Shown here in pieces: positions 1,115-20,516 of a stretch of 64,000 nt of DNA. Made by a program: the position numbers and the translations under genes. Under the pieces are notes generated by a model, which had not been told where the DNA came from, did no database searches, and saw only the letters and a program-made list of their open reading frames with translations. How positions within the stretch are numbered: position 1 is the stretch's first letter; each line of letters starts with the position of its first letter. Source of the stretch: a phage; sequence record OR896157.1. One strand, written 5' to 3'.

Positions 1115-1699
1115 CTATTCATAAATACCAGTCATTTCACACCAATGTTTTCGACAGAGTGAGACGTATTTGTCTTCACCACCTAATTCAATAGTATCAC
1201 CTTCTACGATAGCATTTCCTTCTTGGTCAACACGAGCAACCATTGTTGCTTTACGACCACAATGGCAAACACCCTTCAGTTCGCAGAGTTTATCTGCAGT
1301 TGCCAGAAGAGCGGCAGAGCCCTTAAATAGGTTACCACGGAAATCTGTACGAAGTCCATAGGCCATCACTGGAGTATTATAGAGGTCAACAATTTGACAT
1401 AATTGAAGAACGTGAGACTGGGTCAAGAATTGAGCTTCGTCAACAAACACACAGTGAATATCTTTTTGAGTCTGCGCCCATTTGAAAAACTCAAGAATGT
1501 CCATGTCTTCAGTGATGGTATTTGCTTCAGCATGTAGACCAACACGAGATACAACTTCATTTGCTGAATCTCGCGTGTCAATAGCTGGCTTAAGAATGAG
1601 CGTTCCCATTCCACGCTCTTTATAGTTATGAGCTGCTGTAAGCAGAGATGCTGATTTACCAGCATTCATTGAAGCATAGTTAAAATAAAGCTGAGCCAT
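1115..1699 (-). CDS. tk: thymidine kinase
   Basis: P-loop MNAGKSASLL, C-terminal CxCGxxA...RxxWC zinc motif typical of TK; start taken at MAQLYF (ATG overlapping upstream stop, TAATG). Confidence 0.85.
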   Translation of the reverse strand: MAQLYFNYASMNAGKSASLLTAAHNYKERGMGTLILKPAIDTRDSANEVVSRVGLHAEANTITEDMDILEFFKWAQTQKDIHCVFVDEAQFLTQSHVLQLCQIVDLYNTPVMAYGLRTDFRGNLFKGSAALLATADKLCELKGVCHCGRKATMVARVDQEGNAIVEGDTIELGGEDKYVSLCRKHWCEMTGIYE

Positions 1700-2154
1700 T
1701 ATTCGCCGTCCCAATCAACTACAATAATATCAACATTTGGAGTGAACATATTAATTAATGCTTCAATCTTTTCCCAATCGCCACCAGCAATGCCGGCGCC
1801 AATGCGAGGAATATAAACATCCATTTTGAACAAAGAACCAGATAAGAATTTGTCCATTTTCTGAAAAGCATTAATTAATGCGCCATAATCAAGATTAGGA
1901 CCTGGTTCGTATTGAGTGTAAAGATTAAAGCAAGCACCACCATTTAATGCTAACGCTAAGCTAAAAGTTCCAAGCTTTTTATGGTCAGCATAATCTGTAG
2001 CTGCTTTGTCAGTTGACAAAATAACCGGAAATTTTGAAGCAAGTTGTCCTGCTACGCCAGCACCCATAGTATGGAAACAGTTACAACCATGAGCAATAAC
2101 TTTGCCTTCAGAATATAGCTTAACAATATCGCCTTTAATGTAATTTACAATCAT
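1699..2154 (-). CDS. macro-domain protein (putative ADP-ribose binding/hydrolase)
   Basis: GDIVK...IAHGCNC...GAGVAGQL and IPRIGAGIAGGDWE resemble macro-domain glycine-rich loops. Confidence 0.5.
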   Translation of the reverse strand: MIVNYIKGDIVKLYSEGKVIAHGCNCFHTMGAGVAGQLASKFPVILSTDKAATDYADHKKLGTFSLALALNGGACFNLYTQYEPGPNLDYGALINAFQKMDKFLSGSLFKMDVYIPRIGAGIAGGDWEKIEALINMFTPNVDIIVVDWDGE

Positions 2155-16405: not shown

Positions 16406-16902
16406 CAGATACTTACCACAGTAATAGCTTCAGGAGCTTTAGGAATAACGATATCTTCTTCAATGTAGAAGAGCTTAAATGTTTCAGCTACACGCATAAA
16501 GTCAATATCATAACCGACTGGAGTTCCAATCAATTCTTGAATCTTATCCATCACTTTATACTGAACTTGATAGAAATCTTCAAGACGAGCATCGAATTCA
16601 TCTTCAGTATAATCACCTTCTGGGATTACAAAGCCAAGCACTTCTGAACAGAACTCTGGAGTGATTTCTTCATTTTCAACACAGTATTCAAAGAAAGCAT
16701 CACCGGAATAATCTTCATTACCCATTCCATTAGGGTCTGAATTATCAGATGCAAAACATTTAGCAACGGCACACCAACCTGAAACGTGTCTAGCATTTAC
16801 AGCATAAATCACATTCTCTTGATAATCATCGCCATCGTTTTCCCATGATACACATGATACTGCATAACCTTTAGGGATAGTTTGACCAAAGCGGAGTTCC
16901 AT
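16405..16902 (-). CDS. hypothetical strongly acidic protein
   Basis: 165 aa, about 23 percent Asp+Glu. Confidence 0.45.
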   Translation of the reverse strand: MELRFGQTIPKGYAVSCVSWENDGDDYQENVIYAVNARHVSGWCAVAKCFASDNSDPNGMGNEDYSGDAFFEYCVENEEITPEFCSEVLGFVIPEGDYTEDEFDARLEDFYQVQYKVMDKIQELIGTPVGYDIDFMRVAETFKLFYIEEDIVIPKAPEAITVVSI

Positions 16903-16912
16903 AATATTTCCT

Positions 16913-17287
16913 TCAATTAAATGGTGGAAGAGATTTCTTATATAAATCTATCATCATTCGCCATTTAGCAATTACTTTAGAATACGGAGATTTATGAGAG
17001 AATTGCGAAATGTCAGAATAATCAAGTTCAGGCAGTGGAGTTAAATGACCCATCAGCTCACGAGGAAATTGATGAAAACAATTCATCAAATCTTTGTAAA
17101 CATAATCAAGTAAGTCTTTAACATCAAAGAATTGGGTATTTAGTCCTTCTTTGGAATAACGATATTTCAAAAATTTCCAATGACCGGACTTAGAATCTTG
17201 AGTAAACGCGTAATCACTATGAAGCATGATATCGCGAACAAAATCTTCAGAAAAGAAGATGGAGTGAGTGCAACCATAATAAATCAT
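16913..17287 (-). CDS. hypothetical protein
   Basis: ORF 16913..17335 trimmed to MIYYGC because its 5' extension overlaps a tRNA. Confidence 0.4.
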   Translation of the reverse strand: MIYYGCTHSIFFSEDFVRDIMLHSDYAFTQDSKSGHWKFLKYRYSKEGLNTQFFDVKDLLDYVYKDLMNCFHQFPRELMGHLTPLPELDYSDISQFSHKSPYSKVIAKWRMMIDLYKKSLPPFN

Positions 17288-17305
17288 AATATTTTCCTCA
17301 GAATT

Positions 17306-17382
17306 TGGTGACCCCAGCAGGACTCGAACCTGCAACCTAGCGATTATGAGTCGCGTGCTCTAACCAATTGAGCTATAGGGCC
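17306..17382 (-). tRNA. tRNA-Ile2-like (CAU)
   Basis: anticodon loop cuCAUaa; body very similar to E. coli tRNA-Ile(LAU) as recalled. Confidence 0.55.
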
Positions 17383-17409
17383 AAAGTCCTCCTAAGAGGA
17401 CCGAGGGTA

Positions 17410-17634
17410 TTATTCAACCATGAAATCTGCTACTTCATCAAAGTCGTTATTGATGACAACAGTAAATGGCAGAGCTTCATCACTTGTTTTGATAGTCAGC
17501 TTAACAAAACCATCAACAGTTTCAACCAAACCAACGATTTTATCTGAACGCACTACAGCACGAGCTACGTCAACAATTTTACCAGTCATTGCAAATGTAG
17601 CGATTTGGTTAACTTCAACAACGATACGTTTCAT
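17410..17634 (-). CDS. hypothetical protein
   Basis: 74-aa ORF. Confidence 0.4.
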   Translation of the reverse strand: MKRIVVEVNQIATFAMTGKIVDVARAVVRSDKIVGLVETVDGFVKLTIKTSDEALPFTVVINNDFDEVADFMVE

Positions 17635-17695
17635 TCTTTTTCCTTAGTGGTTTTGATAAGGTAATTATATACTGAATTTTTAAAGCGTTTTCACT

Positions 17696-17730
17696 AAAAA
17701 GCCCCGTAACAGATTTCTCTGCTCGGGGCG
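17696..17730 (-). terminator. terminator-like hairpin plus U-run after tRNA sub-cluster
   Basis: gccccg...cggggc stem followed by uuuuu on minus strand. Confidence 0.4.
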
Positions 17731-17735
17731 TCATT

Positions 17736-17810
17736 TGGTGGGAAGTGTTGGAATCGAACCAACCTCTCATGCTCTTCAGGCACGCGCTAATCCATCTCAG
17801 CTAACTTCCC
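17736..17810 (-). tRNA. tRNA-Phe(GAA)
   Basis: anticodon stem cgugc/gcaug, loop cuGAAga. Confidence 0.6.
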
Positions 17811-17813
17811 GAT

Positions 17814-17890
17814 TGGTCGGTGCGGCAGGATTTGAACCTGCGACCCCTTGGTCCCAAACCAAGTGCTCTACCAAACTGAGCTACACACCG
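17814..17890 (-). tRNA. tRNA-Pro(UGG)
   Basis: anticodon stem cuugg/ccaag, loop uuUGGga. Confidence 0.65.
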
Positions 17891-17896
17891 TTAATT

Positions 17897-17971
17897 TGGA
17901 GCATCCAGAGAGAATCGAACTCTCATCTACTGGGTGGAAGCCAGTCATAATAGCCGCTATACGATGGATGC
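17897..17971 (-). tRNA. tRNA-Gly(UCC)
   Basis: anticodon loop cuUCCac. Confidence 0.6.
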
Positions 17972-17976
17972 AATTT

Positions 17977-18070
17977 GTACGGAACGCCTGGATTCGAACC
18001 AGGTTAAATTGCGATTGACGTCACAATTTATCTTATGAAGGCCATGCCTCTACCATATCCGAACGTTCCG
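17977..18070 (-). tRNA. tRNA-like element, anticodon unresolved (possible pseudo-tRNA)
   Basis: good acceptor cggaacg/cguuccg and T-arm ccugg-UUCGAAU-ccagg, but no clean anticodon stem; contains uuCAUaa and an 8-bp extra hairpin. Confidence 0.35.
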
Positions 18071-18121
18071 TCAAAAACGCTACTCGGCTTACGGCTTAGG
18101 CAATTCCTCGAACCGATAATT

Positions 18122-18195
18122 TGGCAGGCCCCGTAGGAATCGAACCCACGTCACTGAGGTTGGAGCTCAGGATAATACCACTATACGAGAGACCT
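18122..18195 (-). tRNA. tRNA-Trp(CCA)
   Basis: anticodon stem cugag/cucag, loop cuCCAac. Confidence 0.6.
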
Positions 18196-18199
18196 AAAA

Positions 18200-18293
18200 T
18201 GGAGGAAGCGGTGGGATTCGAACCCACGGACCGTATCACTACGGCCTCCGCATTTCAAGTGCGGTGCAATTAACCAGACTCTGCCACGCTTCC
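18200..18293 (-). tRNA. tRNA-Ser(UGA), class II
   Basis: 94 nt, anticodon stem ccgca/ugcgg, loop cuUGAaa, long variable arm. Confidence 0.65.
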
Positions 18294-18297
18294 GAAT

Positions 18298-18373
18298 TGG
18301 GGTGACCGATGGGAGTTGAACCCATGACTACGAGAATCACAATCTCGAGTTCTACCAACTGAACTACGGCCAC
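18298..18373 (-). tRNA. tRNA-His(GUG)
   Basis: anticodon stem cgaga/ucucg, loop uuGUGau. Confidence 0.6.
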
Positions 18374-18587
18374 ATCAATATTCACTCCAGCAATCATGAT
18401 GCCTTCACACGAAATTGAGAGAAGAGTGATCAGTTCAACCCTTGTAGACGCGTCAAGTAAATATTGATGTGACAGCTTATTTAAGAAGAGTGAGAGTCCC
18501 AGTCTTGTACGGAGTAACCATTTATGCATTGGCAGCTATCGCGCGGTTCGCACTTCCGATAAATGGACTTACCGTTACACTCTAATT

Positions 18588-18662
18588 TGGCTGGACTATC
18601 TGGATTCGAACCAGAGATACCGGAGTCAAAGGCCGGTGACTTAACCGCTTGTCTATAGTCCA
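18588..18662 (-). tRNA. tRNA-Gln(UUG)
   Basis: anticodon loop cuUUGac, one C-U mismatch at base of anticodon stem. Confidence 0.55.
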
Positions 18663-18668
18663 ATTGTT

Positions 18669-18743
18669 TGGAGGCGGGTGATGGACTCGAACCATCGCGT
18701 AACGGGATATGAACCCGTCATTCTACCAACTGAAGTTAACCCG
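18669..18743 (-). tRNA. initiator-like tRNA-Met(CAU)
   Basis: loop uuCAUau, GGG/CCC at bottom of anticodon stem, unpaired 1:72. Confidence 0.5.
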
Positions 18744-18898
18744 CATCTATCCGGATTCTTGAAGTACTAACAAGTAGCTTGATGTAGAACACGCTAAAGA
18801 TATAATCTTACGAATATAGAGCTTATTCCGTGGGAACAAACAGCTTCGTCCTCGGCATTATCTTACAGGACTCTGACTTATCTTCAAGAACTGCCTCG

Positions 18899-19363
18899 TT
18901 ATTTTATGAACTTATTTATGAATCGTCTAGCTTGAGTATGACTGACTCCAAGTTCATTTGCAAATTTTACTAATGCACCACGTTTTGTGAAATCAATAGA
19001 ATTATATAAATCTATTCTTAAAGCAATTTCATCTGCAGTGAATTTATGAGCATGATTTTCTGATATTTTTATTTTTGTTTCATCAGAATGATTATGTCCA
19101 GTAAAACCAGTAGATACGATTCTTCCATTTGCGCCAGCGTCTTTAGCATTTTGCGCATTAGTTGCGCAATAAATGTTATCCAAAGAATATGGTCCAACAT
19201 CTCCTTTACGACACATACAATAATTATCTGAGGCTCTACCGCGCAAATGATATTTGCCAGTAGCTTTCCACCATGATAGCCATTCATCAAATGTCAGTTT
19301 AAATTCAATACCTCTTGATTTAGCATGCACTTTTTGCATGCGATACTTTTCATAATCTTTCAT
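18899..19363 (-). CDS. homing endonuclease-like protein
   Basis: GHNHSDETKIKIS (NUMOD3-like) and C-terminal helix-turn-helix ELGVSHTQARRFINK; embedded in tRNA cluster. Confidence 0.5.
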   Translation of the reverse strand: MKDYEKYRMQKVHAKSRGIEFKLTFDEWLSWWKATGKYHLRGRASDNYCMCRKGDVGPYSLDNIYCATNAQNAKDAGANGRIVSTGFTGHNHSDETKIKISENHAHKFTADEIALRIDLYNSIDFTKRGALVKFANELGVSHTQARRFINKFIK

Positions 19364-19377
19364 ATTACTCTCATATT

Positions 19378-19454
19378 TGGCAGTGCTGACGGGTTTCGAA
19401 CCCGCGATCTCTCCCGTGACAGGGGAGTGTCTTGACCATCTCGACTACAGCACT
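19378..19454 (-). tRNA. tRNA-Asp(GUC)
   Basis: anticodon stem cuccc/gggag, loop cuGUCac. Confidence 0.6.
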
Positions 19455-19699
19455 ATAAATTTACTTTCGTGAGTATGGGATTACCCTCAAGCCTTCCGGA
19501 AAGCTGAATAGGCGTTATTGGCTCTCATATACCCGTGCACAGATATAATCTTCATTAACGCAATAACTTCATCAATATACTCCGAAAGTAAACTTTCGGC
19601 GCCGTATTTAATTTTGACTGTGTAGTTATCGTTGAGGGAACTCACAGACAGGGATTAAAGTGCCGACGACTTATCAGAACGTCTTCTGACTTCTACATT

Positions 19700-19784
19700 T
19701 GGCGGGCCGTGCAGGTATCGAACCTGCCTAGTCATTTCTGACACGGATTAACAGTCCGTCGCTTACCCTCTCAGCCAACGACCC
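19700..19784 (-). tRNA. tRNA with GUU anticodon (Asn) but class-II architecture
   Basis: anticodon arm acgga-cuGUUaa-uccgu, discriminator G, 3-bp D-stem, 15-nt variable arm guca-gaaa-ugac. Confidence 0.5.
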
Positions 19785-19789
19785 AAATT

Positions 19790-19864
19790 TGGTTCTCCGT
19801 AAGAGAATTGAACTCTTCTTTCCGACGTGAAAGGCCGGCGTCCTAACCGATAGACGAACGGAGA
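19790..19864 (-). tRNA. tRNA-Glu(UUC)
   Basis: anticodon loop cuUUCac. Confidence 0.55.
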
Positions 19865-19865
19865 T

Positions 19866-19943
19866 TGGTAGGACGTGAGGGAGTTGAACCCATCGACATT
19901 CCGATTAAAAGTCGGATGCTCTAACCAACTGAGCTAACGTCCT
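19866..19943 (-). tRNA. tRNA-Lys(UUU)
   Basis: anticodon stem uccga/ucgga, loop cuUUUaa. Confidence 0.6.
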
Positions 19944-19981
19944 GTAGATATTTATAATAACAAAAATATCTTTAAGCAAAT

Positions 19982-20057
19982 TGGTGGGAATAACTGGGCT
20001 CGAACCAGTGACCTAACGATTATCGGTCGTTTGCTCTACCAACTGAGCTATATTCCC
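19982..20057 (-). tRNA. tRNA-Ile(GAU)
   Basis: anticodon stem aacga/ucguu, loop ccGAUaa. Confidence 0.55.
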
Positions 20058-20063
20058 TGAATT

Positions 20064-20151
20064 TGGTGGGGAGTGATGGAGTCGAACCACCCGAGTCGCA
20101 ATGACAACAGATTTACAGTCTGCACCGCTACCTCTACGGAATTAACTCCCC
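20064..20151 (-). tRNA. tRNA-Tyr(GUA), class II
   Basis: 88 nt, loop cuGUAaa, discriminator A, long variable arm. Confidence 0.6.
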
Positions 20152-20156
20152 GAAAT

Positions 20157-20516
20157 TTATTTAAGAACTGTTGAGTTCATCGATTTAACCAAGAAAACTT
20201 GGTGCGGTGAACGAAGTGAACCTTCAATAGTGCGATGTTCTGGAAAATTGGTTGAAGTCTGAAAACCAGCTACACGGTAACCTTGCTCAGTCCATCCTAA
20301 AAGGATACCAACCATACAGCCAGAATATTTTCCGCTTTTATCCAAAGCTACAATATCACCAGGAGCAATTTCATTACCCATTGAATCAGGCTTAATCCAT
20401 TGTGGAGTAACCAGTTCTATAGGTATATTTATACCGCTTGAAAAGCTGTAATATTCGTCTGAACGTAAGCCCTGAATGCTTTTAAAGACTTTATGCCAAG
20501 TTTTGCTGATGCTCAT
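20157..20516 (-). CDS. hypothetical protein
   Basis: 119-aa ORF. Confidence 0.45.
   Translation of the reverse strand: MSISKTWHKVFKSIQGLRSDEYYSFSSGINIPIELVTPQWIKPDSMGNEIAPGDIVALDKSGKYSGCMVGILLGWTEQGYRVAGFQTSTNFPEHRTIEGSLRSPHQVFLVKSMNSTVLK

Follow-up and report, generated by a model that had tools for sequence, protein, structure and literature searches.

SegB, a free-standing endonuclease of phage T4, is a homing enzyme of the tRNA region that recognises sequence in tRNA genes, and in T4 × T2L crosses its homing displaces the T2L tRNA region, including trna.1, an element that the study used solely as a hybridisation marker, assigning it no function (PMC2330249). Recent work further connects both tRNA arrays and SegB with the evasion of bacterial defences that cleave tRNA. 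Here we analyse an open reading frame (ORF) in the tRNA array of a 64,000-nucleotide stretch of phage DNA (sequence record OR896157.1), referred to throughout as the window. Like SegB, the ORF is free-standing between tRNA genes of a T-even-type phage, encodes a NUMOD3-containing DNA-binding half, and shows a presence/absence polymorphism in which neighbouring tRNA genes are replaced. In contrast to SegB, whose nuclease is of the GIY-YIG type and for which cleavage and homing have been demonstrated, the window protein lacks a GIY-YIG domain and carries a predicted ββα-metal module. SegB already provides the precedent for a gene of homing type in a T-even tRNA cluster; the new part, as the models suggest, is the catalytic module.

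Homing endonucleases comprise a handful of catalytic families. Phage enzymes of the HNH_3 type (I-HmuI, T4 MobA-E) have the ββα-metal fold that is predicted for the window protein, and share with it fusions to NUMOD, helix-turn-helix (HTH) or AP2-like segments and a free-standing position near conserved phage genes; the window protein differs in matching no HNH or HNH_3 model, and its module family differs in having Arg for the catalytic His in 168 of 168 modules. A solved precedent for the missing His is PacI, a His-Me finger in which an Ω-loop Tyr takes the role of that residue and one metal is held through Asp and Asn, as described in reviews (PMC5714182, PMC4081073). In the His-Me finger classification, just three groups lack the His, and the PacI group (group 20) comes mostly from giant viruses (PMC5714182).

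By sequence comparison, we show that the ORF is a compact, mobile 475-bp cassette that is missing from most close relatives, and that its product joins a NUMOD3/HTH DNA-binding half to a half modelled with a ββα-metal fold. The explanation that we favour, and consider probable, is that the ORF encodes a predicted homing endonuclease of the free-standing kind, with a variant nuclease module.

Results

The ORF is a conserved gene of the tRNA array

The tRNA cluster of the window lies on the minus strand and holds 19–20 genes; ARAGORN counts 19, and the Rfam tRNA model adds one at 20067–20151 and gives no support to a 95-nt 'tRNA-Met' at 17977–18071. The reading frame that an earlier note on this DNA had placed at 18899–19363 is confirmed by the ORF list, on the minus strand, with an ATG start and 154 codons followed by a stop. 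It lies between tRNA-Asp (Table 1) and tRNA-Met (18669–18745; ARAGORN and Rfam). Along the transcribed strand, tRNA-Asn is followed in turn by a 245-nt gap (19455–19699), tRNA-Asp (19454→19378), 14 nt, the ORF, a 153-nt spacer (18746–18898), tRNA-Met and tRNA-Gln, which puts the ORF 14 nt downstream of the tRNA-Asp 3' end. The long flanking gaps to which the earlier note had drawn attention do exist, but both are 98–99% conserved in relatives that lack the ORF and therefore represent features of the array, unrelated to the insertion. An Rfam search of 14500–20500 (E up to 1) finds no intron family around the ORF and neither a group I intron nor a known RNA in the two gaps, and both flanking tRNAs are intact. 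As no intron is present, the vacant counterpart of this site is properly an ORF-less locus and not the 'intron-less locus' of the earlier note. A promoter/terminator scan gave no excess over shuffled expectation.

Homologues of the ORF are found in 154 phage records (tblastn), and comparison with KMB17, Ursula and Hyena gives ratios of non-synonymous to synonymous substitution rates (dN/dS) of 0.03–0.05 at dS 0.5–1.3, so the ORF is not a chance reading frame. Over the first 80 codons, the KMB17 and Hyena comparisons contain 0 non-synonymous against 14–26 synonymous changes, and those with Ursula 1 against 21–27. These alignments show the ORF to be under strong purifying selection. Its product falls in phrog_16521, a family labelled 'unknown function'.

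A perfect 7-bp inverted repeat (GCATGC A...T GCATGC) lies at window 19323–19341, within codons 8–14 of the ORF and near its start codon. The promoter/terminator scan flagged it as terminator-like on the plus strand, and it could modulate translation of the ORF.

Empty sites delimit a 475-bp insert

The tRNA region of the window is 94–96% identical to those of Karamvirus phages (T4-like, Straboviridae) of Enterobacter, Klebsiella and Cronobacter, most of which nevertheless align to only ~85% of the 3.1-kb query; the uncovered part is the ORF. Copies at 90% amino-acid identity or more are present in 8 of 50,697 phage records (tblastn), namely Enterobacter phage KMB20 (100%), KMB17, Citrobacter phage Ursula and five Klebsiella phages, of which Hyena, the sole one inspected, has a tRNA region resembling that of Jiaodavirus JIPh_Kp122. 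Remoter homologues (40–72%) lie in the tRNA regions of EcS1, Serratia phage LC53, T2-type Tequatrovirus, Aeromonas phage 31 and others. Among the tblastn matches there is no record labelled hef, after the phage U5 endonuclease Hef that has been described as unique (PMC2988022).

Alignment of the loci in transcription orientation sets the carriers (the window, KMB20, KMB17, Ursula and Hyena) against ORF-less VPA32, PG7, Pet-CM3-4, myPSH1140 and JIPh_Kp122, all of which have a clean empty site. In the four ORF-less Karamvirus phages the junction reads CCAAATA followed directly by CGAGGCAG or, in a longer reading after tRNA-Asp, by CGAGGCAGTTCTTG; the empty site of JIPh_Kp122 is equivalent, though its junction differs slightly. 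The insert thus delimited is 475 bp long (window 18899–19373, boundaries ambiguous by 1 nt) and is made up of the 10-nt leader TGAGAGTAAT plus the ORF with its stop codon, and nothing else. The point of insertion lies exactly between the tRNA-Asp 3' trailer and the spacer before tRNA-Met. In the T4-like phages checked, members of the family start 10–20 nt past the 3' end of the upstream tRNA (up to ~50 nt in T2-type WL-3), and some members overrun into the next tRNA gene.

A 49%-identical paralogue of the ORF occupies a second site, between tRNA-Ile and tRNA-Lys, in Enterobacter phage CW742 (2789–3253 of its locus, minus strand) and in KpV477-type Klebsiella phages. Several GenBank records, that of CW742 among them, leave this paralogue without annotation; at its 3' end it overruns into the tRNA-Lys gene.

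Mosaic flanks accompany one tRNA-Asp allele

In a segment-wise comparison, the ORF, its leader and tRNA-Asp are 100% identical in nucleotide sequence to KMB20, whereas the flanks match ORF-less phages: the distal spacer (18746–18859) agrees with KMB20 at 41% of positions against 98% for VPA32, PG7 and myPSH1140, and the 245-nt gap, tRNA-Met/Gln and the next gap are 99–100% identical to VPA32. This combination points to a recent transfer of the cassette. The proximal spacer, in which substitutions relative to ORF-less phages are clustered (Table 1), is probably the downstream end of a conversion tract. The window looks like a VPA32-like backbone that received a patch of ~600 bp comprising tRNA-Asp allele B and the ORF, a pattern that would be expected of homing with short co-conversion tracts. 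The segment identities show that the cassette recently moved between phage backgrounds along with one tRNA-Asp allele.

Allele B and allele A, the version found in VPA32 and PG7, are identical at 62% of positions, as against 98–100% for the neighbouring DNA, and their differences touch the acceptor, D and anticodon stems. Every ORF-bearing phage has allele B. The same allele lies beside the empty sites of Pet-CM3-4, myPSH1140 and JIPh_Kp122, and we therefore rejected it as a strict marker of the ORF. Judging from these sequences, allele B is likely a co-converted flank, the carrier of a cleavage-resistant version of the target, or both.

Strong purifying selection on the ORF, and the presence of several independent endonuclease genes in the same tRNA array of relatives, would also suit an active nuclease kept chiefly for the benefit of the phage and less for selfish homing, whether by marker exclusion of competitor tRNA regions or by break-induced amplification of tRNA genes against tRNA-targeting defences. 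SegB provides a precedent for each, since it excludes the T2L tRNA region (PMC2330249) and was shown in T6 to drive tRNA-Tyr amplification that evades Septu (PMC13096335). We consider this account unlikely. Few Karamvirus genomes carry the gene, which speaks against a general benefit to fitness, and no tandem amplification was seen in the window or the inspected loci of relatives, although no dedicated repeat search was run. Moreover, the account extends the homing model and is compatible with homing, and does not replace it.

A decayed relative in the T2 tRNA cluster

The displaced trna.1 of T2L (AJ880101) is a homologue of the ORF: it is 50% identical to the ORF protein over residues 31–152 and lies in the T2 tRNA cluster, between tRNA-Ser and tRNA-Met. 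The analogy with T4 segB drawn in the earlier note thereby gains substance, as a homologue of the ORF sits in the very tRNA region that SegB homing displaces (PMC2330249). Unlike the ORF, the T2L copy is disrupted. Compared with the intact WL-3-type gene, it is broken by two 2-bp deletions that cause two frame shifts, and its first ~30 residues are gone; the 134 residues annotated as trna.1 are therefore what is left of the C-terminal part of a 160-aa protein. Decay of this kind, as read from the sequence alignment, is typical of the behaviour expected of a homing gene.

In the T2 record AP018813 the trna.1 locus bears the label 'tail sheath monomer', apparently by mistake.

The C-terminal half is common to GIY-YIG enzymes

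In the full-length AlphaFold2 model, a poorly ordered linker (residues 81–105), with a predicted local distance difference test score (pLDDT) below 50 at residues 81–92 and 102–105, is followed by helices at 110–122, 130–138 and 142–152, in line with the C-terminal HTH that the earlier note had proposed. The NUMOD3-like motif that it also proposed is clearer in the family than in the protein itself. Residues 89–101 read GHNHSDETKIKIS, and Pfam NUMOD3 (PF07460) aligns to residues 89–102 at 14 bits (E=0.051), below its cut-off of 20.4 bits, whereas NUMOD3 is matched by 8 of the 9 members when close homologues are aligned jointly, with a best E of 2e-5.

A database search returned three Seg-like proteins of 196–200 aa (P0004, P0006 and P0007) whose last ~70 residues, with NUMOD3 and HTH, are ~60% identical to the C-terminal half of the ORF protein. 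Like the ORF, such genes lie between tRNA genes; one of these proteins, from Erwinia phage FBB1, sits between tRNA-Pro and tRNA-Ala. They differ from the ORF protein in their catalytic N-termini, which are GIY-YIG domains with a Pfam match in all three. Their alignment with the ORF protein shows one DNA-binding module joined to two different N-terminal domains in genes of phage tRNA arrays, with the nuclease domain swapped. The presence/absence polymorphism, the cassette mosaicism and this common DNA-binding half together uphold the earlier note's proposal of a homing-endonuclease-like gene in the tRNA cluster, with its function predicted.

A predicted ββα-metal module without the catalytic His

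AlphaFold2 models the N-terminal module with helices at residues 3–16 and 25–35, a strand at 48–52, an Ω-loop at 53–63, a second strand at 64–68 and a helix at 69–78. Its pLDDT is ~90 in the full-length model, and the isolated module, modelled with 77 sequences, reaches a pLDDT of 96 and a predicted template modelling score of 0.83. The modelled core, a β-hairpin and an α-helix that bears an Asn/His metal ligand, is that of the ββα-metal (His-Me finger) fold. R52, D55, G57, P58, Y59 and N63 cluster around the end of the first strand and the Ω-loop, and N72 lies on the helix 69–78.

A profile search of 1.84 billion cluster representatives yielded 6,233 relatives of the module at E≤1e-3 and 4,745 at E≤1e-10, counted as clusters at 50% identity. 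In 168 modules, R52 and N63 are conserved at 100%, W28 at 99%, M50 and G57 at 98%, Y59 and W32 at 97%, D55 at 96% and N72 at 95%; Arg52, which stands at the catalytic-His position at the end of the first strand, is invariant, and cysteines are not conserved (46–56%). The module is found joined to NUMOD3, to NUMOD1/I-TevI-type HTH, to AP2-like segments, to sigma-70 region 4 HTH and once to Endonuclease_7, in P0039, where it comes after that domain; several relatives bear two modules in tandem. Family members elsewhere lie directly after the DNA polymerase gene (Vibrio phage PS32B-12) or near ribonucleotide reductase and other HNH genes (Vibrio phage VPp1). The catalytic module is undescribed in Pfam, NCBIfam and PHROGs, a literature search found no paper that describes the family, and the accessible portion of the His-Me finger classification contains no description of it (PMC5714182).

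The earlier note had likened the protein to GIY-YIG/HNH homing endonucleases and had named the lack of an endonuclease catalytic domain in profile searches as evidence that would tell against it. No such domain is found: against the N-terminal 80 residues there is no Pfam match (hmmscan at E up to 10 lists NUMOD3 only), NCBIfam has no match to the ORF protein, and an hmmsearch of PDB sequences with the family profile gives a single spurious match (E=0.63). The likeness thus extends to the C-terminal half that is common to GIY-YIG enzymes, but not to the catalytic domain, which is neither GIY-YIG nor canonical HNH. An ordinary GIY-YIG or canonical H-N-H homing endonuclease would agree with the NUMOD3 and HTH segments, typical partners of both families, with the labels 'HNH endonuclease' or 'homing endonuclease' on some GenBank homologue records, and with weak matches to HNH and homing-endonuclease PHROGs (E 5e-4 to 0.07). 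We nevertheless judge it most improbable, because no Pfam GIY-YIG (PF01541, PF19835) or HNH (PF01844, PF13392) model matches at E up to 10 while the three true GIY-YIG homologues in the same alignment do match GIY-YIG models, and because the catalytic-His position holds an invariant Arg and the closest structure is the atypical PacI.

PacI as the closest known structure

A structure comparison places PacI closest to the module and, further down, lists Cas9 HNH, McrA, GVE2 HNH, DraIII, TagI, CAD and Hpy99I. At the sequence level the relation is borderline. With a PacI sequence checked against the PDB (3ldy/3m7k), hhalign of the module family against the single sequence is not significant, and against an alignment of the PacI family it gives a probability of 57% (P=1e-4, borderline); sequence similarity is 19%. 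The hhalign register pairs R52, Y59, N63 and N72 with PacI R93, Y100, N104 and N113. Like PacI, the module lacks the His and has a Tyr in the inter-strand loop, and the 97% conserved Y59 may, by analogy with PacI, take over its role. The differences are substantial. PacI has two Cys4 zinc sites and the module no conserved zinc ligands; an 18-residue CxxC segment of PacI (C63/C66) has no counterpart in the module; the metal-binding D92 of the PacI D92-R93 dyad aligns with position 51, a variable C/A/S/G, whereas the module family has its own conserved loop Asp, D55; and PacI is a stand-alone dimeric restriction enzyme, whereas the module is fused to homing-endonuclease DNA-binding modules. From sequence and model together, we assign the module to the ββα-metal superfamily, with PacI as its nearest neighbour but outside the PacI group itself.

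Several of these observations weigh against a homing nuclease. With the D92 equivalent and the zinc sites of PacI missing, the active-site chemistry of the module is extrapolated; the Pfam, NCBIfam and PDB sequence searches gave no nuclease match; the Endonuclease_7 fusion in P0039 and the tandem modules would fit a DNA-binding role too; and allele B beside empty sites means that the allele is not proof of target immunity. In a rival account, the protein binds DNA sequence-specifically and has no nuclease activity. It would be a His-Me finger that has degenerated or been domesticated, in the manner of the SMAD MH1 domain, and might regulate transcription of the tRNA array or protectively occlude a site cut by other homing endonucleases. 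In its favour, both the catalytic His and the D92 equivalent are missing, profile databases recognise no nuclease, the module follows a bona fide Endonuclease_7 in P0039, and His-Me fingers that lost catalysis and retained DNA binding are documented (PMC5714182). This rival seems to us decidedly unlikely. R52, D55, Y59, N63 and N72, at positions of the ββα active site, are near-invariant across the 168 divergent modules despite their differing DNA-binding partners, and polar conservation at such positions is typical of catalysis and not of varied DNA recognition. Moreover, PacI, the closest structure, is a solved case of Tyr standing in for His, and the sporadic, cassette-like distribution of the gene needs an engine of mobility.

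Table 1. Positions of the ORF, its parts and its flanks in the window, with the compared T2L region
Feature	Position	Strand	Basis
Free-standing homing-endonuclease-like ORF	18899..19363	-	ORF list; PHROG 16521 E=8e-58; KMB20 protein 100% identical; dN/dS 0.03–0.05
N-terminal module, residues 1–80; predicted His-less ββα-metal (PacI-like) nuclease domain	19124..19363	-	
NUMOD3-like motif, residues 89–102, GHNHSDETKIKISE, inside low-confidence linker (residues 81–105)	19058..19099	-	Pfam PF07460 E=0.051, below cut-off
Helical DNA-binding domain (predicted) with helix-turn-helix, residues 106–154	18902..19048	-	
Leader TGAGAGTAAT, Shine-Dalgarno-like GAGAG, co-inserted with ORF	19364..19373	-	Alignments with ORF-less phages
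tRNA-Asp(GTC) 'allele B'	19378..19454	-	ARAGORN and Rfam
Proximal downstream spacer, clustered substitutions relative to ORF-less phages	18860..18898	-	Segment-wise identity 87–92% against 97–98% distal (VPA32, PG7, Hyena, JIPh_Kp122)
T2L trna.1 region	AJ880101 (L006) 452–995, against WL-3 (L009) 1440–1990		Locus comparison

Discussion

We propose a homing route that parallels those of SegB and other T-even free-standing endonucleases (PMC2330249, PMC2988022). The C-terminal NUMOD3/HTH half would anchor the protein on the DNA of a co-infecting phage that lacks the ORF, at or next to its tRNA-Asp gene or at the empty junction, so that the N-terminal module could nick or cleave the DNA nearby. 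One metal ion would be held by Asn72, perhaps with Asp55, while Tyr59 of the Ω-loop would replace the missing catalytic His as in PacI, with Arg52 at the His position. Recombinational repair from the ORF-bearing genome would then give the recipient a copy of the ORF along with the neighbouring tRNA-Asp allele, and the carrier genome would itself be protected by the insertion, by the allele-B substitutions, or by both, if these disrupt the site.

More tentatively, we suggest that the N-terminal module may represent a class of homing endonucleases that is very large (6,233 clusters or more) and uncatalogued, made up of zinc-free and His-less ββα-metal enzymes that would use Y59 together with Arg, Asp and Asn, related to PacI but distinct from it, and exchanged with GIY-YIG on a common tRNA-gene-targeting DNA-binding module; we regard this as a serious possibility that falls somewhat short of the likelier case. 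Such a His-less, zinc-less and Tyr-based variant would add a sub-class to the few catalytic families of homing endonucleases, with PacI as its only solved relative, and would give a testable function to thousands of 'hypothetical proteins'. The locus itself offers a compact natural case of nuclease-domain swapping on a common DNA-binding module, in a setting where several independent endonuclease genes compete for one tRNA array. If the proposal holds, competing endonuclease genes of this kind help to shape the tRNA alleles of T4-like phages. Because the protein is modular and only 154 aa long, and natural pairs of phages with and without the ORF exist, tests of cleavage and homing should be straightforward.

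Other features of the tRNA array

Beside tRNA-Phe, PG7 (477–1034 of its locus), KMB20, fGh-Ecl04, Pet-CM3-4 and myPSH1140 have an extra annotated coding sequence of 185 aa (224-aa maximal ORF), which is missing from VPA32 and from the window (equivalent position ~17635–17735). We considered it as another endonuclease and dropped it, its N-terminus being hydrophobic and membrane-like by eye.

The 245-nt gap (minus strand) has a folding energy of −69.5 kcal/mol (z=−3.7), which none of 200 shuffled sequences equalled, and it contains a GTG-started ORF of 52 aa (19487–19645), a 'hypothetical protein' in some records. The gap matches nothing in Rfam, and comparison with the T2/T4 sequences led us to reject homology to species II RNA. 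It could hold either a tiny gene or an RNA that is structured or stable.

On the minus strand at 20067–20151, the Rfam tRNA model scores 39 bits where ARAGORN is silent, and relatives annotate the equivalent stretch as tRNA-Tyr or 'tRNA-Pseudo-GTA'. The reverse is seen for the 95-nt 'tRNA-Met' of ARAGORN, on which the Rfam tRNA model is silent and where PG7 annotates tRNA-Met. It overlaps a stretch (17976–18115, minus strand) that is 78% identical over 140 nt to T2L rnaC, the species I small stable RNA (E=7e-28). The stretch probably encodes a stable RNA of the species I kind rather than a tRNA.

Between tRNA-His and tRNA-Ser, fGh-Ecl04 (1664–2278 of its locus) and CW742 (1098–1712) have a 204-aa GIY-YIG Seg-like gene, which the window lacks, its tRNA-Ser (18200–18293) adjoining tRNA-His (18298–18373). 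This makes the His/Ser position the third site in the Karamvirus array at which an endonuclease gene is variably present.

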